From the sequence record PV596763.1: 58,554 bases of DNA, one strand, 5' to 3'. Both the position numbers and the translations under genes were made by a program. The number at the start of each line of letters is the position of its first letter. Within the stretch, counting starts at the first letter, position 1. Positions 1 to 58,554 of this stretch are shown here, one piece after another. This stretch comes from Pseudomonas phage E21. The notes under the pieces are model-generated. The model saw only the letters and a program-made list of their open reading frames with translations, did not search any database and was not told the origin of the DNA.

Positions 1-1128
1 TAACGATGCTGCGATGTGGCGTAGTAACGACTCCTCAAAGTCCGTGCCGATCCCGCCGGGAGTCCCCATCGGTTTTAAGTTCAACTTAGTGCCGGGCATT
101 AAATGCGGGATCTTGGCGCCGTCGATTTCCATGTTTTTAGCAGTCGCGTAGTACGATGCTGCGTTCGTCATCATCTCATGGATAATCTCGCCGAACGGAC
201 GTTGCCCTAAACCTAACTGAGCGTAAACGGCTTCCGGTGGTAGCTCCGACTCAATCGCGGCTGCATACGAGGCATTGATTACCGCGTTTTGTAGCGTTAT
301 CTCCTGAAAGTTCTTAGTCATTCTAATGGTCTTCAATGCTGCAACCATGTCTGAGATACCGCGATTTTGGTGCGGGAGAATTTGCTCCATGATGTGAATA
401 ACTTGTCGACGTCCCCACGGCTTACGTGATGGGACATATCTCCACATTTGATTCTCACCGTTGATTAAACTCTCTCCCGGGAAACTGTTTTGAATGTAGT
501 ACCCGATTGGTCGTCCGAACGCATCGACATGAACACCTCCTCGAATATTTTTCGTGTTGGCCGAGTTATTCGGGTTGCTCAGTCTATGCGGGCTAATCAT
601 TTGAATGGCCGTATTGAAAGGACGACCTGCGGTTCTTGACCATTCTGCCGATGCCAATACTTCACCGGAAATCAGCGCTTGGGCCACCGCGAGGCGAACC
701 AAGCCGGTAAAAGAATTGCGTCGTGTGACATCAAACCAGTTTTCCGTTGAGTCAGCAGCCACGTTGAATTTAGACTCTACGACGTCTTGAAACTCCTCCT
801 CCCACGCTTCGGCGTCAGCTCCTTTTAGTCCTAGCGCGGACAAATTCGGCTTAGCGTTTAGCATGTATTGAGAGCCGACGATATTATCTCGATGTATCGA
901 TACGGCACCGGACGCAAAACCGTCATTCTGGATAACGTTTTGAACCCGGGCGTCGGCTAATTCTTTTTGTCCGCCGTCTAATTCCTGATCCGGAGAGACG
1001 ATTGCGGGCGTCCAGCGATACATTTCTCGCGAGTTTCGCTGAGCACCCTCATAACCGCCTTGTGCTTTAACCTCCGGGGGATTGTTCGCACTTCTCGCGA
1101 CAAGTTCCTTGATTGATTTCATGCTCAT
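1..1128 (-). CDS. portal protein, lambda gpB-like (N-terminal 376 codons; ORF runs off window start)
   Basis: ATG at 1126-1128 (minus) overlaps TAA of upstream gpW-like gene (TAATG). Translation MSMKSIKELVARSANNPPEVKAQGGYEG...HIAASL is open to nt 1 with no stop, so it is absent from the supplied ORF track. Sits after terminase and W-like genes as in lambda. Confidence 0.8.
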   Translation of the reverse strand, partial: MSMKSIKELVARSANNPPEVKAQGGYEGAQRNSREMYRWTPAIVSPDQELDGGQKELADARVQNVIQNDGFASGAVSIHRDNIVGSQYMLNAKPNLSALGLKGADAEAWEEEFQDVVESKFNVAADSTENWFDVTRRNSFTGLVRLAVAQALISGEVLASAEWSRTAGRPFNTAIQMISPHRLSNPNNSANTKNIRGGVHVDAFGRPIGYYIQNSFPGESLINGENQMWRYVPSRKPWGRRQVIHIMEQILPHQNRGISDMVAALKTIRMTKNFQEITLQNAVINASYAAAIESELPPEAVYAQLGLGQRPFGEIIHEMMTNAASYYATAKNMEIDGAKIPHLMPGTKLNLKPMGTPGGIGTDFEESLLRHIAASL

Positions 1129-1403
1129 TAGAATAACGCCCCTAGTGGTGCGGAAATTGACCCGAAGCCGACACCGCAATTACAGATCGGGTCGTTCGGG
1201 GCTAATTGGCAAATCTGGCGTTGTAGCCCGGTGAGATACGCAAGTAGGCTCTGACGGTTAGCTGCGGTGAATTCAACACGCTCGCTATTTTGGTCGACAA
1301 ACACTCGGCCAGACACCCCGATTTGTAAATCGTGATATGCTCGGCTCGCTTCAACATATCGCTGTTTTAATACTGCGAGAGTTTCATCGCATGGACGGCT
1401 CAT
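1128..1403 (-). CDS. head-tail joining / head completion protein, lambda gpW-like
   Basis: 91 aa. Segment GRVFVDQNSERVEFTAANRQSLLAY resembles the gpW RRVEFTATSVSDL block (from memory). Lies between the terminase large subunit and portal. Confidence 0.55.
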   Translation of the reverse strand: MSRPCDETLAVLKQRYVEASRAYHDLQIGVSGRVFVDQNSERVEFTAANRQSLLAYLTGLQRQICQLAPNDPICNCGVGFGSISAPLGALF

Positions 1404-1415
1404 TTTATTACCTCT

Positions 1416-3491
1416 CTATCCTAATAGTTCACCTAAACGGCTAAAGTCTAACATCGGTCGAGGTTGAAAGGCGAATGGTTTTTCTTCCTCGGGTTCCCTG
1501 ACCATCGTATTATTATCCCATTCCTCCGCCCACGTTGGGGGGTTGTCCCAATTTATCGACTCTACTCGTAATAACTCAGGAGACGTACAAAGGCCCAAAC
1601 AGTAGTAGCTTAAGTCCCATGCTTCGTTTCGGGCTTGCGCTAAATTTTCCCAACCTTTTGCGGTTCTCGTTTCGGCGCATAGCTCTGAGAAAAATTCGTC
1701 CGGCAATTCCCTCGTCATATTATAATAGCCCTTGTGAGGCTCAATACAATCTAGTCGACCGTTTAATGCGTCTTTCAACAAGTTAGAGTTTAAGAATAAT
1801 ACCGGGATTTCTCCTCTAGCTGCATTCTTATCGTTTTTCCGGTTAGAGTCCGGATAGCTAATGCGGGTTCTCGGGTCTGTTACTCGTGTGCCACCTTTTA
1901 ATAAGATGAAGCGAGCATGTTTATTCTTTGTCTTCAAATATCGATAGAACGCGTATGCCATGCCGGTTACGCCAGATTTACCCCCGGAGTCACAACCGGT
2001 CATCTTAATTGACATCATTCTACCGCTACCGTCTGACAGCGGATACTCTTTATCTATTACCTGTTTTTCGATTAGTTTCCAGTCTTCTTCGTATGTCGCC
2101 GGCTGTAAGATCATTGCGTCGCCGTCTTCGTCCTTACGCTCCGACTTATTGATGAAAAACCGGTCGATAACATGTGTGTCATACGGTGAACCCGGGGAAA
2201 TACCGAACACCTGTACTACGAAGCTATTCAATTGAACGTCTATCGTTGCTACGAGGAAACGAACGTCATTCGGAACCATGCCTAGCGGGTAATCTGATGA
2301 CCGGCTTTTCAGTGCTTCCGGTGCGCGGACTGACTCTAACGACTTAGGCTGATACGGCTCGCCCATGTTGTTATTCCAGAATTTCTTCAAGGCTTCTTCT
2401 GAGTAAGTCCGTTGATATTCGTCAAGAGCATCGAGGTAGATGTTTACCAGTTTTTGCCATGTTGTAAAGGCGGCTGCCGTACCACGGAGCCAATAAGAAA
2501 TGAAGTCGGTATGAGGGGCTTTACCCGTAAGTCTCCCGCTCTTATCAACTTTACAACCCTCCGGAACCCACACGCCGAATAAATTCATTTCAAAGCGTTC
2601 GTCGGGGTGGATCAAACAACCACATTCCGGGCATACCATTTGTACGGTTTCTGCTTTCTCTCGGTTTGATAGCTGTTTTCCGTTATCCCACGTTAAATGC
2701 TCGAATTTCCCCTCGAAATATTCGTCACAGTGAGGGCACGGCCATTGCCAACGTCGTCTATCGCCACGGTTGTAAAGCGCAATAATACCGGTACACGGCG
2801 GAGCCTCATGCGGTGACTTAGCTATCCAGTGCGGATCAAGAATCTCTCTCGACGGGGACGATTCGGCCATAGTCATAGCAAACGAACCAAAGGTTGTTGT
2901 ACGCTGTGTTGCCAAGTCGAAAGGATTACCATCACCGCCGATATCGTCGTCCATACGGTCAAAGTCGGTCATCAATATTCTTGGAACCGGTCGTCCGGCC
3001 AATTCGGTTACGGTCGGGTATGTAATAGTTAACATCATACCGGTAATGTATTGTTTATCGAATTTGTTATCGGTATCTCGACCTTTCAGTAATTGCTCAC
3101 CGATTAACGGGCTGTGTCGGTGAAGACGATCAATACGTCGCATAGAAAAGTCTCGGGCTGCTGCCATTGTCGGACAGAATACCATTGTATCCATCGGTGA
3201 GACTTTGATTGAGTATGACACGCCGTTGATAATTATCGCGTCGGTTTTACCTGACTGTGCCGGGCCTACAAACGCCATTTTGCTATGATTGCGAGAAGTT
3301 AATACGTCCATAGGTTCGACCATATACGGCGTAGTTGTATTCAACCACGGGCCTACATACGACCCGGGAGAATTTACATATCGATATTGAGATGCTGCAT
3401 TAGAAACGGTCAGCCTTTCCGGAGGTCGTAAGTTATCTGACATCTTGACCGCGATCTCAAAGAGATTTTTGTATTTAGCCATTCTTGCCAC
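1416..3491 (-). CDS. terminase large subunit, lambda gpA family
   Basis: 691 aa. Walker A FVGPAQSGKTD near the N-terminus. Overlaps the upstream small-subunit gene by 17 nt. Followed by W-like and portal genes. Confidence 0.85.
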   Translation of the reverse strand: MARMAKYKNLFEIAVKMSDNLRPPERLTVSNAASQYRYVNSPGSYVGPWLNTTTPYMVEPMDVLTSRNHSKMAFVGPAQSGKTDAIIINGVSYSIKVSPMDTMVFCPTMAAARDFSMRRIDRLHRHSPLIGEQLLKGRDTDNKFDKQYITGMMLTITYPTVTELAGRPVPRILMTDFDRMDDDIGGDGNPFDLATQRTTTFGSFAMTMAESSPSREILDPHWIAKSPHEAPPCTGIIALYNRGDRRRWQWPCPHCDEYFEGKFEHLTWDNGKQLSNREKAETVQMVCPECGCLIHPDERFEMNLFGVWVPEGCKVDKSGRLTGKAPHTDFISYWLRGTAAAFTTWQKLVNIYLDALDEYQRTYSEEALKKFWNNNMGEPYQPKSLESVRAPEALKSRSSDYPLGMVPNDVRFLVATIDVQLNSFVVQVFGISPGSPYDTHVIDRFFINKSERKDEDGDAMILQPATYEEDWKLIEKQVIDKEYPLSDGSGRMMSIKMTGCDSGGKSGVTGMAYAFYRYLKTKNKHARFILLKGGTRVTDPRTRISYPDSNRKNDKNAARGEIPVLFLNSNLLKDALNGRLDCIEPHKGYYNMTRELPDEFFSELCAETRTAKGWENLAQARNEAWDLSYYCLGLCTSPELLRVESINWDNPPTWAEEWDNNTMVREPEEEKPFAFQPRPMLDFSRLGELLG

Positions 3492-4059
3492 CTACGGTAC
3501 TCTCTTTGACTTCCGTCTTAGCCCGGTCTCCGAATGCGTCAACGAGTGTTTGCGCCATCTCATTTAGCGCGCCGTCTATCATCTCAGTAATGCGGGTTCT
3601 TTGATGATCGGTAAGGGTAGATTCACGCTCCAGTGAGTCCGTTACTAAGAGTAATGACATGCGTAAGTGTTTAAAAGACTCCGACATTAGCGCTTCTACT
3701 TGATCGGTAGGCCATAACTCACCCTCTCGTAGTTCGTAGTCCTGCTTAGCTTTCATGCCGTTCCAGAACTCTTTAGAAAGCATTTTAGGAAGCTCGTTAG
3801 GGTGCATTCGCTTTATGTAGGTTTCGACATCATACAGGGGCTTTACTAGGTATGGCGCCACTTCATTTAATTTGTAAATCGGATACCCGCCTCGTTCTCC
3901 GCAAGGAGGAACTTCTCGGATCTTGGGCGTAACGTCTCTACGCTCCATGTTAAATATCTTTGCGATCTGAGTGATGTTAACCCCGTCGAAGATCATCGAC
4001 TCGGATTCACGGTCTAGCTGATTGCTACGACGTCTCGTTGTTACCGGTGCCTTTGCCAT
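3475..4059 (-). CDS. terminase small subunit, Nu1-like (N-terminal HTH)
   Basis: 194 aa immediately upstream of and overlapping the large terminase. HTH-like ITQIAKIFNMERRDV followed by YPIYKLNEVAPYLV, reminiscent of the Nu1 N-terminal domain. Confidence 0.5.
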   Translation of the reverse strand: MAKAPVTTRRRSNQLDRESESMIFDGVNITQIAKIFNMERRDVTPKIREVPPCGERGGYPIYKLNEVAPYLVKPLYDVETYIKRMHPNELPKMLSKEFWNGMKAKQDYELREGELWPTDQVEALMSESFKHLRMSLLLVTDSLERESTLTDHQRTRITEMIDGALNEMAQTLVDAFGDRAKTEVKESTVGGKNG

Positions 4060-4061: not shown

Positions 4062-5585
4062 CTAAACTTCCTTTTTCATCGCTTTTCTGAGATCACGTAA
4101 GGTCTTCAAGGCCCAATCTTGGTTTTCTTCCTTACGTCTCAGATTGTTATAAACGTGGCGGTCGGCTAGTTGGACTGTTCGGCCATCTTCATTTGTTCCG
4201 ACCGCAACTAAGTGGTGTACTGTTACTCGGTGCTTTTGACCTTGCCTATCGAGCCGTCCGATAAATTGGTCATAGTTCTCGAACGAGTACGGAATGTCAT
4301 AGAAAAGAATTGTATGTCCGCCCCGCTGTAAATTCAAGCCGTGCCCTGCACTTTGAGGGTGTGCCATGTAAACTTTTATTCGCCCCGCGTTCCATTGTTT
4401 TATGTTATTTCCGTCTTTATCCATCTCGACTATATCCGGGAATCGGGCTAATATTCTTTCTCGTGATGACCGAAAGTGATACCCAAGGAAAACATTCTTT
4501 CCGGCTTCCTTTGCTTCTTCCAGAAACACTTCGAGCGCGTCTAGTTTCTCCTCGTGGATATCATAGATGTCGGTCTTCCTTATCGGCTCCTCGTTCTCAT
4601 CTATCCCGTCATAGTACGTGTTGTAAATAACACCGGAGCACATTTGTAGCAGTTTCAACGCGAGTATCGCTGCCGATTGCGCTTCCACTATGACGTTTTC
4701 CGCTTCGGGTATCATCATGACTAAATTCTTTTGGAAGTCGAAATACTCCTTGGTGATCTTCTTATTGAGTTTTACCGGGATCACCTTTGGCTCATACGGT
4801 ACTCGATCGAGATAGTCTTCTGCTCGCATAACTACGCATATGTCTTTTATCTTTTCTAAGATACGCATCTCCGTATCTTCTCTCGGCTTGATGCTGTGGT
4901 TATACGGGTTGTACTCGAAGTATTTATCCCTAAACTTATTGAAGCTACGGCCGAACCGTTTACCGTAATCAAGTAAATATATTTGAGAAAAGAACGAAGT
5001 AAACCCCTCGCCATTTGGGGTGGCCGTCAACTCGATTAGTCGTTTTATCCTCGGTCTGACTTTTGTTAAGTCCTTAAACCGCTTAGATTTGTGAGACTTA
5101 AAGGAACTCGACTCGTCTATGACCACCATATCGAACGGCCACTTGCCTTTGTAATAGTTTACTAGCCAGCTTACATTCTCTCGGTTTATGGATACGATAG
5201 GACTATTGCTATTTAGTACCGCTAATCTTTCCTTGGGTGTTCCGACTGCCGGCGTAACTTTATACCCACATAGATGACCCCACTCCATGAATTCGTCCGG
5301 CCATGTTACTTTAGCCACCCTACGAGGGCCTATAATGAGAACTCTATCTACTTCAAAGTTATCTAGTAAGTCGGCGATCAGCGTTCCGGTTATTACGGTT
5401 TTGCCTATACCCATTTCGAGGAATAATCCGCAGAATGGAATGTCATGCGCAAGTTGTCGGGCTTCAACTTGATACTCGTGTAAGTCTTCCCGTTGTCTTT
5501 CAACAAGTTTTCTACCTTTCCTGATTTCTTCAAGTAGGTTAACTTTAGTCTTCCCAACCGTACGTTTCGAGGATTTCTTTCGCAT
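4062..5585 (-). CDS. SNF2-family DNA helicase/translocase
   Basis: 507 aa. P-loop LEMGIGKTV, DExx-like MVVIDESS, helicase motif VI QFIGRLDRQGQ. Confidence 0.8.
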   Translation of the reverse strand: MRKKSSKRTVGKTKVNLLEEIRKGRKLVERQREDLHEYQVEARQLAHDIPFCGLFLEMGIGKTVITGTLIADLLDNFEVDRVLIIGPRRVAKVTWPDEFMEWGHLCGYKVTPAVGTPKERLAVLNSNSPIVSINRENVSWLVNYYKGKWPFDMVVIDESSSFKSHKSKRFKDLTKVRPRIKRLIELTATPNGEGFTSFFSQIYLLDYGKRFGRSFNKFRDKYFEYNPYNHSIKPREDTEMRILEKIKDICVVMRAEDYLDRVPYEPKVIPVKLNKKITKEYFDFQKNLVMMIPEAENVIVEAQSAAILALKLLQMCSGVIYNTYYDGIDENEEPIRKTDIYDIHEEKLDALEVFLEEAKEAGKNVFLGYHFRSSRERILARFPDIVEMDKDGNNIKQWNAGRIKVYMAHPQSAGHGLNLQRGGHTILFYDIPYSFENYDQFIGRLDRQGQKHRVTVHHLVAVGTNEDGRTVQLADRHVYNNLRRKEENQDWALKTLRDLRKAMKKEV

Positions 5586-5832
5586 CGTTTAAATTATCCA
5601 CCCAATATACTAAAGCCCCGTAGCGCTTCATCTCGGCCATGCGTAATTCTTGTTGCTTCGACGGCTTCTCTCCGGGGCGTTTGATTTCGATAAAAACTAC
5701 AAAACTGTTTTTAATGAATATCCGGTCTGGTACGCCTCGTTTACCGGGGCTAGTAAATTTAGAAACCCACCAGCCACGGGCCAAAGCGTATTTTCGGATA
5801 TCCGATTCGACTTTGCTCTCTCTAACAGTCAT
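5545..5832 (-). CDS. VRR-NUC domain nuclease
   Basis: 95 aa. PD-(D/E)XK-like core GVPDRIFI...FIEIKRPGEKPSKQQ typical of VRR-NUC. Commonly paired with SNF2 helicases in phages. Its 3' end overlaps the helicase start by about 13 codons. Confidence 0.65.
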   Translation of the reverse strand: MTVRESKVESDIRKYALARGWWVSKFTSPGKRGVPDRIFIKNSFVVFIEIKRPGEKPSKQQELRMAEMKRYGALVYWVDNLNDAKEILETYGWED

Positions 5833-7865
5833 TAATCTTTACGGTAAAAATACCCCTCCCACCCTGCTGCTCCTAATGGTAGTCCCGGCGCCCACGGTAT
5901 CGGTGCTACCATACAATCAATGAGGTCGTCTAGCCCTAACAGGTCATCTTCGTCGACTTCCGTTATGATTTCATCGTGAACGTGGAATACGATATCGAAA
6001 CCTATTTCTTCCGCATTAAACATGCCGTTTACTAGGACATCTCTTGCTATGGCTTGAACGATATTCTCAATCAACTTCCCGCCATGCGTGGTTTGAACAC
6101 CCCAACCGCCTTGATCTTTTTTACCCTCGTACATTATTTCTTGACGAGTGTACGTCTCACCTCTGCGGTTCTTGTAGGTGTTTGTTACTAAGCGTGGACG
6201 GTAGTAATAAAGTTTTCTCCCCGATGGCAACTTAATCCATAAGAACGGTTTTTTAAACCCGAATACTAACGATCTCCATCTGGTTGTCTTGTGCGTCTTA
6301 ATGGTGGTTTTTACGCAATCTTCAAGTTTATACCAACCGTCAACAATCTCAGGGCACAACTCTCGGAATGCGTCTACCGAAGCGTGAGCCTCCTCCTGTG
6401 TTAGCATGACTCCCATGTTTTCACCGTACCCCCAAAGTCCGGTTTTCTTACCGTCAATAAGTTCGCCACCGCCTAGTCGATATCCGCAACCTAGGGTGGC
6501 CGGTTTTGCCTTTCCTCGGAATGGGAGGGTGTCTTCGTAAGGAATTTTTAGCCATGCTGATGCGAATGCGCGATATAGGTCTTTTTTAGCCCGTAAGGTA
6601 TCTAGGAACCACTTACAGCCGGTAAGCCAACCTATTACTACCGATTCAATTGATGACAAGTCCGCTACAACGAATCGACGACCTACCGTTGGGATTAGTG
6701 CGGATCGTAGTAGCCCCGGCAACATATCCATGGGTTCGCCAGCAAAAACATTCAACGCCCACATGTCTTGATCGAGAACTAACTTCTTCGCGATTTCCGT
6801 AGCTTCAACGTCTTCAAGTATCTTCGGTGTTCTTACGAAGTTGTGAGTTTGTAAGCCACGCCCGGCGAATCGTCCGGTTCGAGAACCCCCGTAGCATTGA
6901 ATTGTACCGCGTACCCTACCATCGTCATTTTCGATATCTAACATTTTGTTGTATTTCTTTAGCGACGTTTTGTTAGATTTACGACGAAGTTTAAGTACGC
7001 GACATGCTTTTTCTGTAATTCCATTATCCGGGTACTCATTTATGACTTTTTTCACGGTGTCAGCTAATAGGTCATTGAACGGGTACCCCTCTTGTTGTAG
7101 CCACGCTAGTAGTTGTTTCTGAGACCCGGGGTTGTCTAAGCCTGTGATTTCTCGCATTTCGTCGATAATCTGTGGCTTGCGTGTCTCGGCCATCTTTATT
7201 GCTGCTTCGATGAAGTCGTTATCAATATTTATTCCGCGATCATTGATTTTCTGGTCTAAGGCGTAAACTTCCCACTCGAATTCGATCATGTCATACTTGA
7301 TGTCACTCAGACGGCGGTCGATATTTTCTTCGGCTATAACGTCTTGTCGACAATAGGCTCCGAATGCTTCCCATTCTTCCGGGTGTGATTCCGCATCGTG
7401 TCTTGTACTTTTGTCGAGTTTAGTTGGCTTTCTTGGTTTACAAAATTTCTGGATTAGGCGTTTACCTGCTGCGTCTTTTGCTTTATCCCCTTTAAACCCT
7501 AGGGCCTTGCCGACCATGGCTAGGTTTCCTGTAAAACCTCTGTGGTAGGCAGCCACCATCGTACAACGCCAGACGTCATAGGGGGTGTCGATCCCTAGGA
7601 CGTGTTTAGTGATCAACCGCTCAAACTGAGCGTTGAATGCCCGTTTTATGATGTTATCGTCGCGCAAATATGCCTTTAACTCGTCTAGGTCTTCCTCGGG
7701 CATTGTGTTGTCCCAAAACCCGATTTCGTCCGAGTCAGTAAACTTCCAAGCGACCATTAAAATTTCAGTAGATGGGTGCTGTGCGTACTTGTGGGCGCCA
7801 ACTTTCGTTAGGTCAAGCTCACTATATGTTTCGTAGTCAAATCTTAACGTTCTTTTCGATTCCAC
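5832..7865 (-). CDS. DNA polymerase, family A (Pol I-like) with 3'-5' exonuclease domain
   Basis: 677 aa. GTG start with GAGGAG 9 nt upstream. Exo I-like FDYETYS, motif A-like VVADLSSIES, motif B-like K..LGCGYRLGGG, motif C VHDE. Confidence 0.85.
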   Translation of the reverse strand: MESKRTLRFDYETYSELDLTKVGAHKYAQHPSTEILMVAWKFTDSDEIGFWDNTMPEEDLDELKAYLRDDNIIKRAFNAQFERLITKHVLGIDTPYDVWRCTMVAAYHRGFTGNLAMVGKALGFKGDKAKDAAGKRLIQKFCKPRKPTKLDKSTRHDAESHPEEWEAFGAYCRQDVIAEENIDRRLSDIKYDMIEFEWEVYALDQKINDRGINIDNDFIEAAIKMAETRKPQIIDEMREITGLDNPGSQKQLLAWLQQEGYPFNDLLADTVKKVINEYPDNGITEKACRVLKLRRKSNKTSLKKYNKMLDIENDDGRVRGTIQCYGGSRTGRFAGRGLQTHNFVRTPKILEDVEATEIAKKLVLDQDMWALNVFAGEPMDMLPGLLRSALIPTVGRRFVVADLSSIESVVIGWLTGCKWFLDTLRAKKDLYRAFASAWLKIPYEDTLPFRGKAKPATLGCGYRLGGGELIDGKKTGLWGYGENMGVMLTQEEAHASVDAFRELCPEIVDGWYKLEDCVKTTIKTHKTTRWRSLVFGFKKPFLWIKLPSGRKLYYYRPRLVTNTYKNRRGETYTRQEIMYEGKKDQGGWGVQTTHGGKLIENIVQAIARDVLVNGMFNAEEIGFDIVFHVHDEIITEVDEDDLLGLDDLIDCMVAPIPWAPGLPLGAAGWEGYFYRKD

Positions 7866-7886
7866 GGTCTGCTATCTCCTCAATAC

Positions 7887-7928
7887 AAAAAAGGCCCCTA
7901 TTACGGAGCCTTGAACGGGGTGAACCCC
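7887..7928 (-). terminator. intrinsic terminator(s) between SSB-like gene and DNA polymerase
   Basis: Minus-strand hairpin ggctccgtaataggggcc (6-bp stem with one G-U) followed by a U6 run. A second hairpin ggggttcacccc overlaps the SSB-like stop. Confidence 0.5.
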
Positions 7929-7929
7929 T

Positions 7930-8535
7930 TTAGATGTCGTCGTCTTCGTCTTCACCCCATTCGTCTTCGTCGTCCCACGCTTCGGAATCATCGATTCTTT
8001 CTGCTCCGAACGGCTCGCCGTCTTTGATGAATTTGATTGAACGGAGGTTAGCGTTAACTCGTTTTCCGTACTTGTTATCCTGAACCCAAAGACCAATCAA
8101 GGCACTAACATAGCAACCGCCGTATAGGATTTCCTCGATATCGTCTACGTCGATTTCTTCTTTGTCAGCATCTCGACAAACAGGACGTTTCTTTTCTCGG
8201 GCGGAGATAACAAACATATTTTCACATTCGGGTTTATCCGAAAATTCTTCGTCGCCATCTTTGATGAAATACTTCGATGATGGGACTTTCACTTTTGCGT
8301 TTTTCGCTGTTTTCGCTGCTAAATCTTTTAAGACTTCGGCTGTTTCAGAATGAATGTCCTTGTCTAATAAGAATGTAGCACCGAACTTTTTACTGCCGTC
8401 ATCACCCTCTTGTGGTGTTGCTAAGTGCGGGTATGACAAGCGAACGTTATCAATTCGGACGTGTCCGTCTTCATAGATTACAGCTACGGTTTTACCTTCA
8501 TGTTTAATACGTTTTACTGGTTTAAGTTTTGCCAT
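7930..8535 (-). CDS. ssDNA-binding protein candidate (DUF2815 / T7 gp2.5-like architecture) with acidic C-terminal tail
   Basis: 201 aa. C-terminus AWDDEDEWGEDEDDDI as in gp2.5-type SSBs. Sits next to a DUF2800-like nuclease, a known pairing. Confidence 0.45.
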   Translation of the reverse strand: MAKLKPVKRIKHEGKTVAVIYEDGHVRIDNVRLSYPHLATPQEGDDGSKKFGATFLLDKDIHSETAEVLKDLAAKTAKNAKVKVPSSKYFIKDGDEEFSDKPECENMFVISAREKKRPVCRDADKEEIDVDDIEEILYGGCYVSALIGLWVQDNKYGKRVNANLRSIKFIKDGEPFGAERIDDSEAWDDEDEWGEDEDDDI

Positions 8536-8566
8536 TTTCCGGTTTACCTATTTATCGATTTTCGGT

Positions 8567-9895: not shown

Positions 9896-9909
9896 ACTAC
9901 CTCTAATAC

Positions 9910-9935
9910 AAAAAAGGGACTGCCTTAGCAATCCC
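9910..9935 (-). terminator. intrinsic terminator between acidic protein gene and nuclease
   Basis: Minus-strand hairpin gggattgctaaggcagtccc (8-bp stem, one G-U) followed by U6. Shares the flanking sequence AATACAAAAAAGG with the terminator at 7887. Confidence 0.55.
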
Positions 9936-47012: not shown

Positions 47013-47017
47013 CGATG

Positions 47018-49872: not shown

Positions 49873-51346
49873 CGAGCTTTTCTGAAAGGTCGAGCATATA
49901 TTGCCACTCTTTCAATTGCTTCGATTCGTCCGGCCGCCCGACGATAGTCCCCATTTTTACCATTGCTTGTTGTTTGACTTTGAACGCGTCAATTGAGTTT
50001 CCGGCGAGGTCGATCGCGCCTTGGAAGCCTATGTAAGCCGACGCAAGGCCCAACACCTCGCCTCGCATTCTCTGCGTGAATGACAGCGTTGTACGGCCTT
50101 CGTCCCGGAAGAATGAAAAGGCTTTGCCGGAAGATCGGGCGTTGCCGGACAACCGCTCTAACGATGCTCGGAGGTTATTAATACCGCCCACCGAGTTTTG
50201 TACTAATCCCCGGAGTCGTTGTTGTTCCGCTCCTAGGTTTCTAGTATCAATACCGGCTGACCGTAACGCGGATTGAGTCTGTCTAGCGGAAGCCGTTTCA
50301 TTCCGTAACGCTTGGCTTGCTTCGCGTAGTCGAGCATTAGACGCTTGAAGTTTTGCGCCCATCTCGGCATTCGCTGTGCCGGCTTGTCTTACCTGATTTG
50401 CTAAGTTCTTAGCGTCGGCCTGTGCTGATCGGTATTCCGCTCTCGCTTTTCTCACCGCTTCGGTTTGACGTTGGAACGTCTCGATCATGCGGGACATTCC
50501 TATCGCAGATTTCGCGGAGGCTTCTAGGGCCTTTAGGTCTGAATTCATACCGCTAGCGTCTTTGCGCCAACGTTTTGATGCCGTAGCTAAATCGTTTATC
50601 TGTTTTTCTAGCGTGCCTATCTTACGTCTAGCTGCTTCCGCCGGGGCCATCAAGTCAGCCATTTGCCCGGACATTGACGGTAGTGACGAAATTACTCGGC
50701 CAAGTGTTTGATAGCCTTTCGTGCTCGCTACCAGTTGGTTTGCTTGTAGCTTCAAACTTGCTAGTAGTTGGGCGTGGGCTTTCTGAGCGCGCGTCGGTAC
50801 GTCACCGATGATCTTCTCTTGGCGGGCTAACGCTTGGTTTGTCCGGGTTACTTCATCGCGTATTCTTTTCTGTGCGGTCGCAATGTCATTAGACGAAATC
50901 CCGAAACGAGATAGTTCCTTGGCGGTCTTTTGTACGCTCTTGGTCGACCGGTCTTGTTGGTCGGTCAAACGCTTTACCGCTCGTTCTGCTTTGTCTAAGT
51001 CGGACTGCATTTTCTTAGTGACATTAGACGCACCGTTCATAGCGGAGGAAAGGTCACTATGTTTTTTCTTGGCTTCGGCCAATTGAGTGTTTACCTTATT
51101 AAGCGCCTCTTTCTGGCGGGTAAACATCTCTGTTAAAGAATTAAGCCGGAGCAATTGTTGTCCGGCATTCTCTAATTTCTTATATTGTTGTTCTAGTTCT
51201 CTGACCGAAGCGTCACCTCGTTTCGCTGCGTCCGCGTTACGGGTCTGCGCCGATGTTAAGTCATCTAACGTCTTTGATACTTGCTTTAGCGTTTTCTGAC
51301 TATCATCTCTGGCTCTGATCCGTAGTTCTACGTCTCTATTTGCCAC
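49733..51346 (-). CDS. tape measure protein, N-terminal segment (frame 1 of 3)
   Basis: 537 aa. GTG start. Coiled-coil rich. Confidence 0.65.
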   Translation of the reverse strand: MANRDVELRIRARDDSQKTLKQVSKTLDDLTSAQTRNADAAKRGDASVRELEQQYKKLENAGQQLLRLNSLTEMFTRQKEALNKVNTQLAEAKKKHSDLSSAMNGASNVTKKMQSDLDKAERAVKRLTDQQDRSTKSVQKTAKELSRFGISSNDIATAQKRIRDEVTRTNQALARQEKIIGDVPTRAQKAHAQLLASLKLQANQLVASTKGYQTLGRVISSLPSMSGQMADLMAPAEAARRKIGTLEKQINDLATASKRWRKDASGMNSDLKALEASAKSAIGMSRMIETFQRQTEAVRKARAEYRSAQADAKNLANQVRQAGTANAEMGAKLQASNARLREASQALRNETASARQTQSALRSAGIDTRNLGAEQQRLRGLVQNSVGGINNLRASLERLSGNARSSGKAFSFFRDEGRTTLSFTQRMRGEVLGLASAYIGFQGAIDLAGNSIDAFKVKQQAMVKMGTIVGRPDESKQLKEWQYMLDLSEKLGVRIDILAKSYSKFAVASSTVGMSAEEYKYIYESVRQDVAGVPLIC

Positions 51347-51596
51347 CTTGTAGCCCCTTTATCGTCTTGTTGAAAATCTTAGCGCCCTCTTTCCCCCATA
51401 CGGCGGAGGCGATACATTGTTGCATTAATATTGCTTCCGTTGCTATTTGATTATTAACTCGCTTGATAACAATGTCTACTTCGGCCTGTACCATGCCGAT
51501 CGGGTAGTGTCGTGCGAACGTATGACCGTGGGACAGGAGGAGGCTAACCCCCTCCCTGATTTTCTCCGCATAGGAGATGAAAAAGTTTAACCCTTT
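51336..51596 (-). CDS. T-like extension reached by -1 frameshift from the G-like chaperone (G-T fusion)
   Basis: -1 frame is open for about 85 codons from the slippery site G AAA AAG (plus-strand 51593-51599) to TAG at 51336-51338. That TAG overlaps the TMP GTG start. Confidence 0.45.
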   Translation of the reverse strand, partial: KGLNFFISYAEKIREGVSLLLSHGHTFARHYPIGMVQAEVDIVIKRVNNQIATEAILMQQCIASAVWGKEGAKIFNKTIKGLQGGK

Positions 51597-52099
51597 TTCT
51601 TGGCTTTCTTGGCCGGAACTGTTTTCCCGTTCGCTTCTCCCACTTTCTCCATTACGTTCGCCATGATCTTTTTTAGCGTAGCAATGTCCGAGAAAGTTAA
51701 CTCAAATACGGCCATCATTAAATCGTATTGCGCCGTTATCGGTAGGAGGGAGGCTTTATCGGCCATGGTAGGTTCGTCCGCAGAAACCGCGATAATGCTA
51801 CTAATTAGCCCCGGTGCGGAGGATATCAGGGTGAGCAAGTAGTTAGCGAATACTAAACTATCTAATTCTTTCCCGGCCCCAACTCCTTGTGAATATAAGT
51901 CGAATACGCCGTCTAAATCTTGGGCGTGTAACTGGATTAATCGAGAGATATCGTTTAGTGATAAGCCTCTAACTTCGATGGAAATAGAATCATTGATAGT
52001 TACGCTTTTTTTCGTTGGTTCGAATGCGGATAATGACATTGTGATTACCTCAATAGTTGTTGACCTGAGTAGTTTATCCGCTGACAGGAAATATTTCAA
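51587..52099 (-). CDS. tail assembly chaperone, lambda gpG-like
   Basis: 170 aa. Immediately upstream of the TMP. Ends ...PAKKAKKKG on a lysine-codon slippery run. Confidence 0.55.
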   Translation of the reverse strand: MKYFLSADKLLRSTTIEVITMSLSAFEPTKKSVTINDSISIEVRGLSLNDISRLIQLHAQDLDGVFDLYSQGVGAGKELDSLVFANYLLTLISSAPGLISSIIAVSADEPTMADKASLLPITAQYDLMMAVFELTFSDIATLKKIMANVMEKVGEANGKTVPAKKAKKKG

Positions 52100-52177
52100 A
52101 CGTTAAAACAAAAAAGACGCCCGGAGGCGCCTTATATTATCCTAATTACAAATACGCGTATCCGAGGGTACGTGGCG

Positions 52178-53365
52178 TTACTTTGGGTTAACGGTAACTT
52201 CCTCCGTCGCACTTCCTCCGTCGCTATCGGTTACTGTTATCGTAACTTTTGTCGCGGAACCGGACACGGGGCCTACCGTAAGATTCACAGTGGCCTCTCC
52301 CGTAACCCCGTCTGTCTCTACACCGTCAGGGTGACTATCGGCCAGTTCCACCTCGTCGGAGCTAAAGGCAAAGACCACTTTTGTTTTTCTCGGAGCGCCG
52401 TCTTTCGTAGCTTTTACCTTAGCTACTAAAGTATCACCCTCAGTACCGGAGGTCGGAGTAACGCTAAGAGTTAGACGGTATTCCGGCTCCGGATCAGGCT
52501 TTGGGGGCGTAGATGCTCTTGCCATCGCTGACTCGATGTAAACCTGCTCCACTTTGCGGTTTTTGCGAAGAACGCTAAAGGTAAACCCAATTTGTTGCCA
52601 GTCGTCACCTTTAAGTGCATAGTCTCCGTCAGGTTGTAACATGACTTTGGGCCAGTAGAAATCTTTCGCGCTACCTACCGGGTTAGCTGACAAGAATCGC
52701 AGTGAGCCGTAGATCATGCGGTTACGGGCAATGATGATTTCGCGAGCCTGCGCCTCGATGTCATACTGGACTACTAACTGCTGACCGTTTTTAATTTCAG
52801 TAGCGGTAGGTTCGATATAGATACGTCCTAACTCTAGGTCGTAGTCGATCTGGCCGGCAAAATTTACTTTAGTTACACCGTCGATAGTTGACACATCGCC
52901 ATCGCCTAGGTTGATGGTTGTATCACCGTCCGCCACGTAAACTAACAGATTCTCGATGTTACGAACGCCCATCGGTAGGATATCCGTTGTGCCGAGTTGG
53001 TAGTGACGACCTAATGCCACGTTTTCGAATACTTCTTTGTTGCCTGTCACCTGAGTCTGAGTAACATGCGTTTTGTCCCCTAGGAAGAACAACGCTAGGT
53101 TGTCCGCGGAGATATGGTCGGTTGTGAATGAACCAGAACGGGAATGCTCTAGCATCACGGTTAGGTCTTTTTCACGCATACCATAATCAGACGAATAATG
53201 GTCTAACGTTTCTGTGTCAGAAGATAGTGATAACTCCGGGGTATTACCGAAATACATTTCGCCATGCTCGGAGTTGTTACAACCGTCGACGAACTTGTCG
53301 AAGAATAGTCGACCACGCCCTACGACGTAATTCTGGTCGTTGCTGCTTGTACATGGTTGTGCCAT
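52178..53365 (-). CDS. major tail protein (gpV-like) with C-terminal Ig-like (Big_2-type) domain
   Basis: 395 aa. Position upstream of the chaperone. C-terminal ~100 aa T/S/G/V-rich beta-sandwich-like repeat. Confidence 0.6.
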   Translation of the reverse strand: MAQPCTSSNDQNYVVGRGRLFFDKFVDGCNNSEHGEMYFGNTPELSLSSDTETLDHYSSDYGMREKDLTVMLEHSRSGSFTTDHISADNLALFFLGDKTHVTQTQVTGNKEVFENVALGRHYQLGTTDILPMGVRNIENLLVYVADGDTTINLGDGDVSTIDGVTKVNFAGQIDYDLELGRIYIEPTATEIKNGQQLVVQYDIEAQAREIIIARNRMIYGSLRFLSANPVGSAKDFYWPKVMLQPDGDYALKGDDWQQIGFTFSVLRKNRKVEQVYIESAMARASTPPKPDPEPEYRLTLSVTPTSGTEGDTLVAKVKATKDGAPRKTKVVFAFSSDEVELADSHPDGVETDGVTGEATVNLTVGPVSGSATKVTITVTDSDGGSATEEVTVNPK

Positions 53366-53368
53366 GGT

Positions 53369-53881
53369 TTACCCTCTTGCTTGATTAGTGATACCGATTA
53401 CTATCGGGAGGTAGAAAAACGCCTTAGATGATACCTCAACTTCGCTTGGTCTGACAACCTCGTCACCTAAAGTTAATTCAAAAATCCGCCCACCTAGTCG
53501 ATAATACTCCGGGTATAGCGGTTTACCGGTCTCCGGCCGTACCGCATTAATCTTTTGTAACGCACATATTACGTCTTGTACTAGCTCGTATACCGGGTCG
53601 GTTTCTTGTTTAGGGTCTATCGGGTCGACCCACCCTTGTATTAATAGGTTCCAGCCGGTTTTGTTTATGATCTTGAAGTCATCAGCGTAATCAGCGTAAT
53701 TAGCCCCTTTCGCTTCAAGTATACTCACCAAAGGTACGGGGTCGTTATCTCCGAAAACGGTTCTACCGCGATAGACACTTCCGGCCAAACTATACGGCCG
53801 TATATTTTCGTTACCGTCCGATGATACTGTTTCTAGTAGAGACGTTAGTGCTTTTAGTATTTCTAATTTTTTACTTGCCAT
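53369..53881 (-). CDS. tail terminator (gpU-like), by position
   Basis: 170 aa. Confidence 0.4.
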   Translation of the reverse strand: MASKKLEILKALTSLLETVSSDGNENIRPYSLAGSVYRGRTVFGDNDPVPLVSILEAKGANYADYADDFKIINKTGWNLLIQGWVDPIDPKQETDPVYELVQDVICALQKINAVRPETGKPLYPEYYRLGGRIFELTLGDEVVRPSEVEVSSKAFFYLPIVIGITNQARG

Positions 53882-54488
53882 TGCTTAATCTCTCAAACTG
53901 CCGGAAGAACTCGCCTTCAACTAACTTCGCGATCTGAGGTGACACTTTTCCAGCCGTAGTTTCCATAACCTGATTTACCGATGGAGCGTAAAGGAGGGCC
54001 ACTCGCCCGGGAACAAGCCACGCTTTGTGGGCGCTTGCTTTGTTGTTAAGTTTCTCCCCGGGAGAGAGACGAACTGCTAGTCCGGTGTTGTAATTGTCTT
54101 CTGACATACTCGCACCTGCTTTCAGTTTAACAAGAAACGCTTTCTTAAGAAAGGTTGTTCTCCCCCGACGAACTTTAACTGTTACCCCGGACTTACCCAT
54201 CGTTCCGGAGGTGGCAAAACGCGCTAGGCTGGTGGCCCTTTTCCTCGCGAGTATTGTCGCTTCTAGTTTATTGTCTGAGGCGTATCGAGCCACTTTCAGT
54301 CTGTCACCTTTTAGGTATCCCCTAGGGAAACTTATCTCGGCCAACATTCCGTCCCGCAACGCTTTCATACCAGACCGGCGGACTACCGTATTTATCGCTA
54401 AACGCATAGACCGCGCCGTCATCTTCGGCATACCGTCGAAATACAGTTTTAACGCATTAACGCCCACCGTCTCCACCGATATCGCCAT
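53871..54488 (-). CDS. tail completion protein (gpZ-like), by position
   Basis: 205 aa. Confidence 0.35.
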   Translation of the reverse strand: MAISVETVGVNALKLYFDGMPKMTARSMRLAINTVVRRSGMKALRDGMLAEISFPRGYLKGDRLKVARYASDNKLEATILARKRATSLARFATSGTMGKSGVTVKVRRGRTTFLKKAFLVKLKAGASMSEDNYNTGLAVRLSPGEKLNNKASAHKAWLVPGRVALLYAPSVNQVMETTAGKVSPQIAKLVEGEFFRQFERLSNGK

Positions 54489-54490
54489 GA

Positions 54491-54844
54491 TTATATCCTT
54501 TTAACTTGCCACTTTGATTCGACCGGGCCGTTGTACGGCTCTTGCGCTACCAACGACACTCGGATATCTTCGAATCCCGGGTCTGTCAATTGAATGATAT
54601 TTCCGTATGCTAGTACGACACCTTTTTCTTTAAGTTCGTCTCTATCGAAAATCATTCGGTCTACTCCGTCAATAACTTCTGAGTACCCCGCTTCCATGAG
54701 ATCGCCCATGATTGCTATCTTATTGTGATATCGGACATACAGGGCGACCGGCTCCTGATTTCCTCTTATCAAGATAGCAGATAGGCGAAAGGCGGAATGA
54801 ACCGCCTTTCTCATTTTATATTTTTGTCTAGCCCAAGCGGTCAT
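54491..54844 (-). CDS. head-tail connector protein (gpFII-like), by position
   Basis: 117 aa. Confidence 0.35.
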   Translation of the reverse strand: MTAWARQKYKMRKAVHSAFRLSAILIRGNQEPVALYVRYHNKIAIMGDLMEAGYSEVIDGVDRMIFDRDELKEKGVVLAYGNIIQLTDPGFEDIRVSLVAQEPYNGPVESKWQVKRI

Positions 54845-55191
54845 TATAGATCGTCGTCAGCGTCGGTCTTCGCTTTGGCTCCTTTCTTATTGCTCTTTGC
54901 CGTGTCTGCGGATTTAGCTTGTTCGGCTGCGAGTTCTGCACGGGCTTGTTCTAGTGCTTCTCGTTTGATGGCTTCCATATCAACCGTCTTTTCGACGAGG
55001 GCCTTTGCCACAGATTGATTAATCTTAATGTGGCCGATAGCGCTAGGGTTAGTTGCGTTAATCTGTTCTAACTCGGAGGTTGTTAGCTCAACTACATCGC
55101 CAATGGCCGGAACGAATTGCTGGCCGTTACGACGTAAGATGATCGTTTGAAGCGCCACGCGTTGTACTACTGTTTCTTTGGTCTCTGACAT
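54844..55191 (-). CDS. DNA packaging/head completion protein (gpFI-like), by position
   Basis: 115 aa with an acidic C-terminus. Confidence 0.3.
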   Translation of the reverse strand: MSETKETVVQRVALQTIILRRNGQQFVPAIGDVVELTTSELEQINATNPSAIGHIKINQSVAKALVEKTVDMEAIKREALEQARAELAAEQAKSADTAKSNKKGAKAKTDADDDL

Positions 55192-55254: not shown

Positions 55255-56322
55255 TTACTTGGTGGATACCATCAGTAAGAATGAAGTGTTAGGATCGCGT
55301 GGAACCATTAACGGAGCCGATTGCGTCATCACATAATCAACACTTGGGTCTTCTTCTTCCCACATTTTAGGGAACATTTCTAATGAACGGAAGCCCGCTT
55401 TCTTGTCGTGGATAGCACCGAAGCAACGGTAGCCCTCGATAGCACGAGATACACCTACGATACCGCCTTGTGGTACTAGGTATTCTTCTTTGCCGTCTTG
55501 GTTAACGAATTTCTGCGTGTTGACGTAGATATCCATTGCACCCGCGCCATTTACACCCGCGATACGGCCCATGTATTCAATGCCCTCAAGGCCATCTGAG
55601 ATACGCGTAATCAATGTTTCAGAACCTTTGAAACGAGTATCCATCAAGCCGTGATCGCCGAACAATTCGTCTTTGTTGATCTTGACGAATAAATCCCAAG
55701 CGTCTTGGCCGAAGATGTAGTCACGAACAACCGTACCGCTAGCAGACTTGTCATTAACCAGTTGCTTGCCTAAGCGTAAGTCTTTAAAGGTCTGCTCCGA
55801 TGTGATGCCGGGAGCCGTCCAGTCGGTTGTGATGGTCAGCGACGGGTCACGTCGGAAGTCTACACGGGTTTTCGGATAGTCCGGCCCTTCAACATCAACG
55901 TAGCCATAGATCACCGCTGACGATGCCATAACCTCGAACGTATTCTCGATCATTGACTTATGTTTGCGTAGCGTTTCTGCGACGGCCATCTTGAATTTTT
56001 GGTCTGGCGTCAAGGAGCCAGTTAGTAGGTTTTCGCCCGGGCGACGAGGAAACACCATCGATGGGTCGATAGCATGTTTAGGTTTCAGGTACGCCGGTTT
56101 AAACGCTACGGTGTGGAACCCTTTCTCTTTGATCACCACGCCTTGTACGTTAGGAGCGACGAACGGTGCTACGCGTTTATAGTTGTCGCTTACTTTATCG
56201 ATCGCGATTTCGTCTGTATCAAAGTTGATCGTGTTAGGGAAGAACCCTAAGAAAAACGACGGTAGCGATTCGATTTTACGCAATACCGGTAAAAGTTGTA
56301 CGGTTGAATACTGTCCAGCCAT
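55255..56322 (-). CDS. major capsid protein, lambda gpE-like
   Basis: 355 aa. YLKPKH and TQSAPLM blocks parallel gpE YVKPKH and IQSAPLM (memory). Confidence 0.75.
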   Translation of the reverse strand: MAGQYSTVQLLPVLRKIESLPSFFLGFFPNTINFDTDEIAIDKVSDNYKRVAPFVAPNVQGVVIKEKGFHTVAFKPAYLKPKHAIDPSMVFPRRPGENLLTGSLTPDQKFKMAVAETLRKHKSMIENTFEVMASSAVIYGYVDVEGPDYPKTRVDFRRDPSLTITTDWTAPGITSEQTFKDLRLGKQLVNDKSASGTVVRDYIFGQDAWDLFVKINKDELFGDHGLMDTRFKGSETLITRISDGLEGIEYMGRIAGVNGAGAMDIYVNTQKFVNQDGKEEYLVPQGGIVGVSRAIEGYRCFGAIHDKKAGFRSLEMFPKMWEEEDPSVDYVMTQSAPLMVPRDPNTSFLLMVSTK

Positions 56323-56334: not shown

Positions 56335-56751
56335 TTAATACAGTTTTTTGATAATGATTGTTGAGCGACCTAACTCGAAAAGCGATTTGGCTTTCACTAG
56401 GTCATCAATGGCTTTCGGCCATGTGATCGCATCGATATTAAACGTTCCGCCGGTGTAGAACTGTACGGTCTGACCGCTTTTCGTTGCTTGTGCCGAGATC
56501 CCGACTGGTAATATCGCCGTTGCAGTTCCCTCACCCTCGTCACCGCCGGAACCCGTACCCGGATAAACCGTGTCGTCAAATGCTGCGATAGTGCCGTCTT
56601 CTTTACGATATACCACTTGGTACATATCGATATCGCTTGACGCCACACCGTTGTCAGTATGGATCGGTGACTCGCCGGCGAAAATCTGAGTTGGTTCCCA
56701 TGCGTTAAGATCGCGAGAACCTGCTAACATATCTACGTTTGTGTTTTTCAC
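56335..56751 (-). CDS. head decoration protein, lambda gpD-like
   Basis: 138 aa. ATAILPVGISAQATKSGQTVQFYTGGTFNIDAITWPKA parallels gpD [34 protein letters not shown]. Confidence 0.7.
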   Translation of the reverse strand: MKNTNVDMLAGSRDLNAWEPTQIFAGESPIHTDNGVASSDIDMYQVVYRKEDGTIAAFDDTVYPGTGSGGDEGEGTATAILPVGISAQATKSGQTVQFYTGGTFNIDAITWPKAIDDLVKAKSLFELGRSTIIIKKLY

Positions 56752-56764
56752 GATAAACCCCTAA

Positions 56765-58042
56765 TTAGTTACCGAAATAGCCAAGACCTGAAAGGTCGTC
56801 TAATAACGAGTTATTCTCGTCCGTTGCTAAGGGCTTATCCGTGTCCTGTGGCTCGGCTTTAATGCCCGGCTGTTCGCCTTCGTCCATTGCTTTCTTAAAA
56901 GCGTTCGGCTTTTCTTCTTGCTTTGGTTCTTCCGCTTTCTCAACCGGAGAAGCGTTAAGCATTGCCTTAGCATCTTCTTCGCTCATTGAGGTGTTGAACG
57001 CGATGTGTTGTGCTAACGATTCGCGCCCTTTTGCTTCATCACAACCAAGAATGCCCTTGATACGCGCTTGTTCTGCTTTCGCACCTTTAGCTTGTTCTTC
57101 GGACGCATTGATTGTCGGTTGCTCCGCGTTTGTGTTTTTTACGGCCATATCAGTTTCGCTCTCTGTTCCGTTAATGAAGTTGTGTAATGCCATTTCTGGC
57201 GACTCAACGCGGTCAACTAGACCTAAGTCTTTAGCGTCATTCGCGTCGTACGTTTTAGCTTCGGTGTCGAATACTAACTTTTCCGACAAACCGCGATTTC
57301 TTGCTACGGTTGCTACAAAAGTTTTTCTACAAGCGTTGACGCCTGATTGTAGCTCTGCTCTTGCTTGTTCGCTCAGTTCCTCGAAAGGGTTGGTTTCTGC
57401 CTTTCTGTCGCCGGCGCGTATCACAGATACTTTAATTCCTACGTCAGACAACATTTTAGACATATCAGCGTGAATAATCAACGCCCCAATTGAACCAGCG
57501 CCACCCGAGGGCGTGATACTTATCGCGTCACACGCACTTGCGATCGCGTAAGCAGCAGAATAGCAACTTGAGTTGATGACGGCCAGTGTAGGTTTTTCAC
57601 CGCGACGACTGAAAATCTCGTCCGATAGTTCCATACAACCGGCTGCCTCGCCCCCACCCGAATTAACGTCATAGACGATTCTCTCGACGTCCGGATCATT
57701 CAAGGCCATTGCGTGTGCTCTACGAATATAGCTATATCCTGTAACGAACCCCCAAGAACCGCCGAAGCGGTTAATTAGGGAGCCGTGTACTGGAATGAAA
57801 GCGGTTCCGTTAGAGAATCCGTATGGTTTGGTAGTTGGTGCGCTGTTAGACACCCCATACGTCATACACACGTTATTTAGCATTGTTGACCAAGTTTCGT
57901 CAGTCATGTCGGCCTCTACGTTAGCGAGCAACTGTAAGTTACTCCCCATAGAACCGACTGAACGTTCGTCCAGAAACGCCGGGCGTAGATTAATAGCTTG
58001 TACCGCTTGTACGGCAGCAGCTTGATAAGTGCCTTGCGTCAT
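56765..58042 (-). CDS. prohead protease (S49/ClpP-like) fused to scaffold, lambda gpC/Nu3-like
   Basis: 425 aa. S49 core VINSSCYSAAYAIASACDAISITPSGGAGSIG. C-terminal A/E/K-rich helical scaffold-like region. Overlaps the portal stop by 4 nt. Confidence 0.7.
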   Translation of the reverse strand: MTQGTYQAAAVQAVQAINLRPAFLDERSVGSMGSNLQLLANVEADMTDETWSTMLNNVCMTYGVSNSAPTTKPYGFSNGTAFIPVHGSLINRFGGSWGFVTGYSYIRRAHAMALNDPDVERIVYDVNSGGGEAAGCMELSDEIFSRRGEKPTLAVINSSCYSAAYAIASACDAISITPSGGAGSIGALIIHADMSKMLSDVGIKVSVIRAGDRKAETNPFEELSEQARAELQSGVNACRKTFVATVARNRGLSEKLVFDTEAKTYDANDAKDLGLVDRVESPEMALHNFINGTESETDMAVKNTNAEQPTINASEEQAKGAKAEQARIKGILGCDEAKGRESLAQHIAFNTSMSEEDAKAMLNASPVEKAEEPKQEEKPNAFKKAMDEGEQPGIKAEPQDTDKPLATDENNSLLDDLSGLGYFGN

Positions 58043-58554
58043 TCCGAATCCCCACTGTTAGTTTCTTCGTCATCTTCCGAGTTTGTTTTCTCGTTAGCGG
58101 ATATATTACTCACATCTCCGGAGAAAACAAGCCCGTATTTATCTTTTATTCGTTTTTCTCGTTCTAACTGCCTAAAAATCTCTCTCCAGTCTTCGCCGAG
58201 TCGAGCGATTTCTTTCTCACGAGTGCTCAGACCACTGTTAATTCTCATGATAGCTGCTTCGGTCTCTTTCTTCTCGTCGATTTGACCACGGGCTGCACCT
58301 ATCCAGTCGCAACGAATTAAACAGTCTTTCACTAACGGTTCATAAAACCAGTCGCTCGTTTTTCCTCGTGGCAACGGGATTTCGTTTTTGTTTATCATCT
58401 CCTCTAACCACAGCGCATAAATGTTTGTAGCGAAAGCATCAGCAATGATCTTTTTTCGAGACTGCATGAATTTCCATGTTTCCCCCATTGAGGCTCTCGC
58501 AGAAGAATAGTTAGTCTTCGTGTAGTCTCGGCTAAACTGTTCGTATGAAAGGTT
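58039..58554 (-). CDS. portal protein C-terminal part (continuation of 1128->1 if the molecule is circular)
   Basis: Frame open from 58554 down to the stop at 58039 (NLSYEQFSRDYTKTNYSSARASMGETWKFMQSRKK...). Codon phase at 58554 matches the phase at nt 1. Joined product about 548 aa, close to lambda gpB size. Confidence 0.75.
   Translation of the reverse strand, partial: NLSYEQFSRDYTKTNYSSARASMGETWKFMQSRKKIIADAFATNIYALWLEEMINKNEIPLPRGKTSDWFYEPLVKDCLIRCDWIGAARGQIDEKKETEAAIMRINSGLSTREKEIARLGEDWREIFRQLEREKRIKDKYGLVFSGDVSNISANEKTNSEDDEETNSGDSE

Follow-up and report, generated by a model that had tools for sequence, protein, structure and literature searches.

The ends of the Pseudomonas phage E21 record meet inside an intact lambda-family portal gene

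Results

A portal gene divided between the two ends of the record

The window analyzed here is the whole of sequence record PV596763.1 (Pseudomonas phage E21), a stretch of 58,554 bp with a GC content of 46.9%. This study concerns a phage portal gene that is cut in two by the ends of the window, and the form of the genome to which this split points. The genes for DNA packaging and head assembly lie around the two ends as follows:

1..1128, minus strand: 5′ part of the portal gene (codons 1–376), assigned by translation, Pfam, and homology; runs off the left end
1128..1403, minus strand: gpW-like head–tail joining protein (PF02831, E = 6.9e-09; reference gp11); its stop overlaps the portal start
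1416..3491, minus strand: large terminase of the lambda gpA type, with ATPase (PF05876, E = 8e-67) and endonuclease (PF20454, E = 4e-55) domains
3475..4059, minus strand: small terminase subunit (PF07278; phrog_141 "terminase small subunit", E = 3.7e-57)
55255..56322, minus strand: major capsid protein, lambda gpE family (PF03864, E = 5e-44)
56335..56751, minus strand: lambda gpD-like head decoration protein (PF02924)
56765..58042, minus strand: prohead protease/scaffold, peptidase S49, lambda gpC-like (PF01343, E = 9e-28)
58039..58554, minus strand: 3′ part of the portal gene (codons 377–547 and the stop at 58039–58041), in phase with the 5′ part

Read on the minus strand from position 1128 to position 1, the portal frame starts with MSMKSIKELV, runs for exactly 376 codons without a stop, and is still open at the left end. 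The last 516 nt of the window, read from 58554 to 58039, form an open frame of matching phase that holds 171 codons and then a stop. A preliminary description of the window, made from the sequence alone, had proposed joining the two parts into a product of about 548 aa. The end-joined minus-strand translation that it put forward as a check gave 547 aa with a single terminal stop and no internal stop or frame break, and the junction falls exactly between two codons (…LLRHIAASL/NLSYEQFSRDY…). That description had also remarked that the N-terminal part was missing from the list of open reading frames (ORFs), and this is indeed the case: for the portal region, only 58039..58488 (149 aa, beginning at an internal ATG) is listed, and 1..1128 has no entry, since the list omits any ORF left open at an end. 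By our own arithmetic, the chance of a stop-free frame of 172 codons is approximately (61/64)^172 = 3e-4, to be multiplied by 1/3 for the phase match.

Beyond this chance estimate, we consider homology to be the decisive evidence for the join. The joined protein matches the Pfam family PF05136 (phage portal, lambda family) with E = 1.9e-84 (284.3 bits, the curated cut-off being 32.9) in one stretch, residues 33–409, that passes over junction residues 376/377 and covers profile positions 2–353 of 354; this full-length match assigns it to the family of lambda gpB. Alignments with the solved portal 8vhx_D (E = 1e-208, residues 17–545) and with lambda portal protein B (8k38_A, E = 4e-95) run through the junction without a gap, so that alignment to gpB and to portal hidden Markov models, the second check proposed beforehand, spans the join in both cases. 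All 547 residues are identical to those of the intact, annotated gp12 of Proteus phage vB_PmiS_NotEvenPhaged (OK499986.1; hereafter NotEvenPhaged). At the nucleotide level, a 1002-nt probe centered on the junction gave full-length, single-piece matches of equal length in 24 phage records (97–99.3% identity, without indels), and a scan of IMG/VR viral contigs for the exact 36 nt at the junction gave no match.

Because of the portal identity, the gap-free structure alignments, and the probe matches in 24 records, no sequence is missing or duplicated at the junction. No direct repeat of at least 8 nt is common to both window ends, and neither terminal redundancy nor a residual overlap from the assembler is therefore present. 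In the real genome, the two ends lie next to each other, and the joined ORF is an intact lambda-family portal. The split is an ordinary coordinate artefact of an already known kind and not a biological feature.

Around the junction, the genes follow the order of the lambda head module: small terminase, large terminase, gpW, portal, protease, decoration protein, and capsid protein. The large terminase scores 225.9 bits against PF05876 and 187.6 bits against PF20454, and thus combines the gpA ATPase and gpA endonuclease domains that mark cos-packaging phages.

Relatives and completeness of the genome

The close matches of the window are all phages of about 58.5 kb, chiefly of Proteus mirabilis (pPM_01, E21, RP6, Isf-Pm1, NotEvenPhaged, and others). 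BLAST against OK499986.1 gave three collinear blocks that span the whole genome at 94.7 to 98.2% nucleotide identity, and 65 of the 66 NotEvenPhaged proteins were recovered as single hits, mostly at 93 to 100% identity. In this comparison, the junction of the window ends falls between positions 14498 and 14499 of NotEvenPhaged. The NotEvenPhaged record is 58,566 bp long and carries the 12-mer GGTGCGCAGAGC at both ends, giving a unique length of 58,554 bp, which is the length of the window. Judged by genome-wide similarity and collinearity, the phage is placed in the Casjensviridae, genus Lavrentievavirus, in the group of pPM_01, E21, and NotEvenPhaged. Neither tRNA genes nor Rfam families at gathering score were found in the genome. 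As a new isolate or strain, it adds to a phage group that is already known and well sampled, and it brings little scientific novelty.

Several records that are 97 to 98% identical at the portal to the Proteus mirabilis phages carry other host names: PV593182.1 (Staphylococcus phage SVV09-A, marked UNVERIFIED), OR506460.1 (Enterococcus phage AS-M1_NWU), OR699184-7 (four Salmonella phages), and MN604053.1 (Escherichia phage E21). The Gram-positive host labels of SVV09-A and AS-M1_NWU look implausible, and contamination or misassignment seems likely.

The cos site and the predicted virion DNA ends

The 12-mer that bounds the NotEvenPhaged record lies inside the window, in a region with the following features:

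14499..14510, minus strand: cos cleavage site, the predicted virion DNA ends; single exact copy of the 12-nt 5′ cohesive end 5′-GGTGCGCAGAGC
14683–14701 and 14757–14775: two exact 19-nt direct repeats, ACCGCCCACCCGAACACCC
14511–14529: a 74% copy of the same repeat, abutting cos

The sequence 5′-GGTGCGCAGAGC occurs exactly once in the genome (0.13 matches would be expected by chance). In Salmonella phage chi, the DNA ends were found by primer extension to be a 12-base 5′ extension of this sequence (PMC4342425), and run-off sequencing gave the same extension for Escherichia coli phage Utah (PMC5374247). For Proteus phage Jing313, which is described as "circularized upon assembly," the same ends were predicted by PhageTerm, and the same end sequence has been reported for NotEvenPhaged, Inception, DanisaurMW, and DoubleBarrel (PMC9022528). 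When we used a 600-nt probe centered on cos, the records of Inception and NotEvenPhaged were found to start exactly at the first base of the 12-mer, those of DoubleBarrel, Jing313, and Klebsiella phage Phraden to end exactly at its last base, and 11 further records to run straight through it. In Phraden, the 48-nt stretch that ends in the 12-mer is 100% identical. At the level of sequence, the window thus carries the cohesive end of chi-like phages.

A second trait shared with these phages is the distance that separates the terminase genes from cos. The start of the small terminase (4059) lies 10,451 bp from cos (14510), and the interval is filled by genes for a primase, an exonuclease, SSB, DNA polymerase I, and a helicase; the terminase genes are thus displaced by more than 10 kb from the left cos end, across the replication module, as was described for chi (PMC4342425).

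Next to cos, the ACCGCCCACCCGAACACCC repeats are candidate terminase recognition (cosB-like) sites. They belong to a region of about 1.2 kb (13751–14956), bounded by the primase gene and the rightmost early genes, that contains cos and has essentially no coding sequence; cos is flanked on one side by the GC-rich 19-nt repeats and on the other, at about 14100–14300, by very AT-rich sequence with short repeats. This region could hold packaging signals or origin or promoter elements.

Packaging would proceed as in other members of the family, from whose biology the following steps are taken; the adjacency of the ends, the intact portal, the complete genome, the single cos, and the gpA-type terminase are what was observed in the window itself. 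The small terminase (3475–4059) and the gpA-type large terminase (1416–3491) would recognize cos at 14499–14510 on replicative concatemers and nick it with a stagger of 12 bp. A unique, non-permuted linear chromosome would then be packaged through the portal dodecamer, and after injection, its 5′-GGTGCGCAGAGC overhangs would anneal and be ligated into a circle. Reads or ligation products that span cos would allow assemblers to close the circle, and the point at which it is opened would then be arbitrary. In these terms, the circular sequence represents either the intracellular form with annealed cos ends or an assembly in which cos was read through.

We are highly confident that the window holds a single genome, complete and of unit length, from a virulent, chi-like and presumably siphoviral phage of Proteus, as a cos-joined circle opened arbitrarily inside the portal gene. 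The preliminary description had called it a closed circular or circularly permuted genome. The adjacency of the record ends and the completeness of the genome stand, and the permutation of the packaged DNA probably does not: this is a predicted cos phage with a single 12-mer at 14499–14510, and its virion DNA is probably neither circular nor headful-permuted but, as its similarity to phages with mapped ends suggests, a unique linear molecule ending at 14499–14510. Two points weigh against this interpretation. The cos assignment consists of sequence identity to relatives with measured ends, and local quality problems in two tail-region genes (the gp33 homologue and the tape measure gene, see later) indicate that the assembly is not flawless.

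Alternative explanations

A circular assembly could also arise from headful (pac) packaging of terminally redundant, permuted chromosomes. Many permuted phages assemble in this way, and the contig does close into a circle with its ends in the middle of a gene. The large terminase, however, is of the cos-type gpA class, and no terminal repeat is left in the window. Moreover, the chi-family cos 12-mer is conserved and single copy, the ends of close relatives have been measured or predicted at this very site, and their linear assemblies break there. At the level of sequence, the genome does not show the features of headful phages, and we regard such packaging as very improbable. Still less credit can be given to the idea that an incomplete or linear sequence truly breaks off at the window ends, with material lost or repeated where they meet. 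Such breaks would be compatible with the absence of an overlapping terminal k-mer and of direct evidence from the assembly, but residue-for-residue identity of the joined protein to an intact 547-aa portal, alignment of the 1002-nt probe to exactly 1002 nt in 24 genomes, and a total length equal to the unique length of the closest relative effectively refute them.

The circular map, together with genes labeled "recombinase" and "transposase" in relatives, would also suit a phage-plasmid kept as a resident episome, or a temperate prophage after its excision, instead of a lytic cos phage. Yet the "recombinase" is RdgC-like, the "transposase" label has no Pfam support, and neither 72,556 plasmid records nor 5,426 complete E. 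coli genomes gave a match (Proteus genomes being outside this search). No integrase was found among the genes checked. The relatives, without exception, are phages obtained from sewage, and for RP6 and RP7 a lack of lysogeny genes is reported (PMC10194311). A plasmid or prophage state was rejected on the absence of matches to plasmids and E. coli genomes and of an integrase among the genes checked, and we give it hardly any weight, about as little as headful packaging. A cos-joined circle of a virulent phage remains the preferred interpretation.

The opening point of the record and Escherichia phage E21

The record of Escherichia phage E21 (MN604053.1, RefSeq NC_052983.1) is circular, 58,536 bp long, and starts and ends on the same bases as the window: the first and last 80 bases of the window align gaplessly, end to end, with its first and last bases, with one internal mismatch. 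Because the opening base is the same, the origin of the window is an inherited or arbitrary database convention. Among other related records, the opening point varies widely, which is what assemblies that close into a circle would be expected to show.

In Escherichia phage E21 (loci L004 and L005), only a 149-aa "putative lambda family portal protein" is annotated, at 58021..58470, and nothing at 1..1127. The 376-codon N-terminal part of its portal is thus unannotated in the public exemplar of the species (Lavrentievavirus E21), and the RefSeq exemplar shares the annotation gap of the window. The portal will be missed every time an ORF caller handles a record of this kind as linear. The practical use of these findings is thus in curation: relinearizing the sequence at cos (14510, minus strand) would leave no gene split.

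Two broken genes in the tail region

The homologue of NotEvenPhaged gp33 (34855–36519, minus strand) has no continuous ORF; its conserved protein sequence hops among all three frames. In a five-genome alignment, the ORF at this locus is open for about 545 codons in NotEvenPhaged, pPM_01, SVV09-A, and Isf-Pm1. The window has about 40 small indels here, almost all private to it and many of them lengthening homopolymer runs; the flanking genes are intact and 95 to 99% identical, and indels are almost absent elsewhere in the genome. The gp33 allele is present at this locus in only five of 26 related records. A structured RNA or an intron was considered for this region and rejected, given the continuous ORF of about 545 codons in four relatives and the nearly always private nature of the indels. 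Most likely, the indels come from a local stretch of low-quality or mis-polished sequence; a true pseudogene is less probable.

Two private indels, +1 near 49769 and −7 near 49440, shift about 320 nt out of frame and divide the tape measure gene into three ORFs (537, 163, and 792 aa). In Escherichia phage E21, P-07, and Kokobel1, the gene stays open for about 1447 codons. Around these breaks lies a divergent patch of about 700 bp (approximately 49440–50100) whose nearest match is Providencia phage Kokobel1, at 86.7%; identity to other members of Lavrentievavirus is only about 70%. That the whole patch is garbled sequence was rejected; its 86.7% identity to Kokobel1 marks it as a real mosaic allele in which only the +1 and −7 are private.

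Like the gp33 indels, the +1 and −7 are most likely artefacts of sequence quality, and it is improbable that the indel-dense state of the two genes is real. If it were, the isolate would have a distal-tail or host-range gene in fragments as well as an interrupted tape measure, and one would have to consider a defective genome with a helper in a mixed stock, or an unknown process that generates indels locally at mosaic tail loci. Both genes probably need resequencing.

Tail, lysis, and replication genes

The preliminary description saw the genes at the right end as a leftward continuation of the same morphogenetic operon. The annotation agrees with this: protease, decoration, and capsid genes are followed by tail genes down to about 36529 and by lysis genes at 31570–32883. 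The remaining structural and lysis genes are as follows:

36529..55191, minus strand: head-completion, neck, and tail morphogenesis genes
52178–53365, minus strand: major tail protein
47018–51346, minus strand: tape measure gene, broken into three ORFs
40215–44036, minus strand: large tail protein of 1273 aa
31570..32883, minus strand: lysis genes (lysis protein B, lysis protein A, and i-spanin), named after a relative (98.8–99.1% amino acid identity)

At the end of the tail block (36529–39472, minus strand) are three adjacent paralogues of 306, 327, and 338 aa with mutual identities of 27 to 31% (reference gp30–32; phrog_2448). They carry the odd inherited label "short transient receptor potential channel" and are likely distal tail or fiber components.

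The replication module, the early region, and two genes for DNA modification comprise:

4062..13750, both strands: replication module between cos and the terminase genes
4062–5585, minus strand: SNF2-type helicase
5832–7865, minus strand: DNA polymerase I
7930–8535, minus strand: SSB, as annotated in a relative
8567–9931, minus strand: Cas4-like exonuclease
11075–13750, plus strand: primase-polymerase/helicase
17732–17846, 19495–19609, and 20972–21080, minus strand: an intergenic cassette of about 110 bp, present three times, before early genes
18098–18748, minus strand: Mom-family DNA modification protein (PF25680, E = 1e-36)
28169–28909, plus strand: Dam-type N6-adenine methyltransferase (PF05869, E = 9e-30)

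In each of the cassettes, a sigma-70 promoter close to consensus (TTGACA-17-TATATT, matching at 11 of 12 positions) is combined with a conserved leader that has a hairpin (CCGG-AACGAA-CCGG), a ribosome-binding site (GAGGA), and an ATG; the cassettes are probably repeats of an early promoter–leader unit. Because a Mom-family protein and a Dam-type methyltransferase are both encoded, the phage DNA is probably modified. Relative to NotEvenPhaged, the primase gene has an in-frame insertion of 12 nt at 11818–11830 (891 aa versus 887 aa), and an indel cluster at 16074–16083 (net +1) changes the frame in a 70-aa hypothetical gene, the homologue of gp64.

Comparison with known phages

With phage lambda (Nu1/A, W, B, C, D, and E; cos), the genome shares the order of the head genes, a gpA-type terminase, a gpB-family portal, and a 12-nt 5′ cos. 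It differs from lambda in that cos lies 10.4 kb from the terminase genes, with the replication module in between, and in that the phage is virulent, an integrase not being found among the genes checked.

NotEvenPhaged is collinear with the window, equal to it in unique length, and identical in its portal and cos 12-mer. Its record, however, is linear, begins at cos, and has the 12-mer duplicated at both ends; its gp33 (543 aa) and tape measure (1445 aa) are intact, and the middle patch of its tape measure is a different allele, about 70% identical. Escherichia phage E21 is 97.6 to 98.7% identical at both ends and shows the same split portal, and its left-end genes have the coordinates seen in the window (gpW, 1128..1403; small terminase, 3475..4059), but it differs in its length of 58,536 bp, its tape measure open for 1447 codons, and another gene allele at the gp33 locus.

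The remaining comparison is with chi itself (Salmonella, Chivirus) and E. coli phage Utah. Among chi-like phages, flagellum-dependent adsorption and siphovirus morphology have been reported only for chi, iEPS5, and Utah. Chi and Utah belong to another genus, their GC content is about 56% versus 46.9% here, and their nucleotide similarity to this group is distant, at about 60% identity over half of the genome (PMC9022528). What they have in common with the window is the 12-nt 5′ end GGTGCGCAGAGC, terminase genes separated from the left cos end by over 10 kb, and a genome of 58 to 61 kb without tRNAs.

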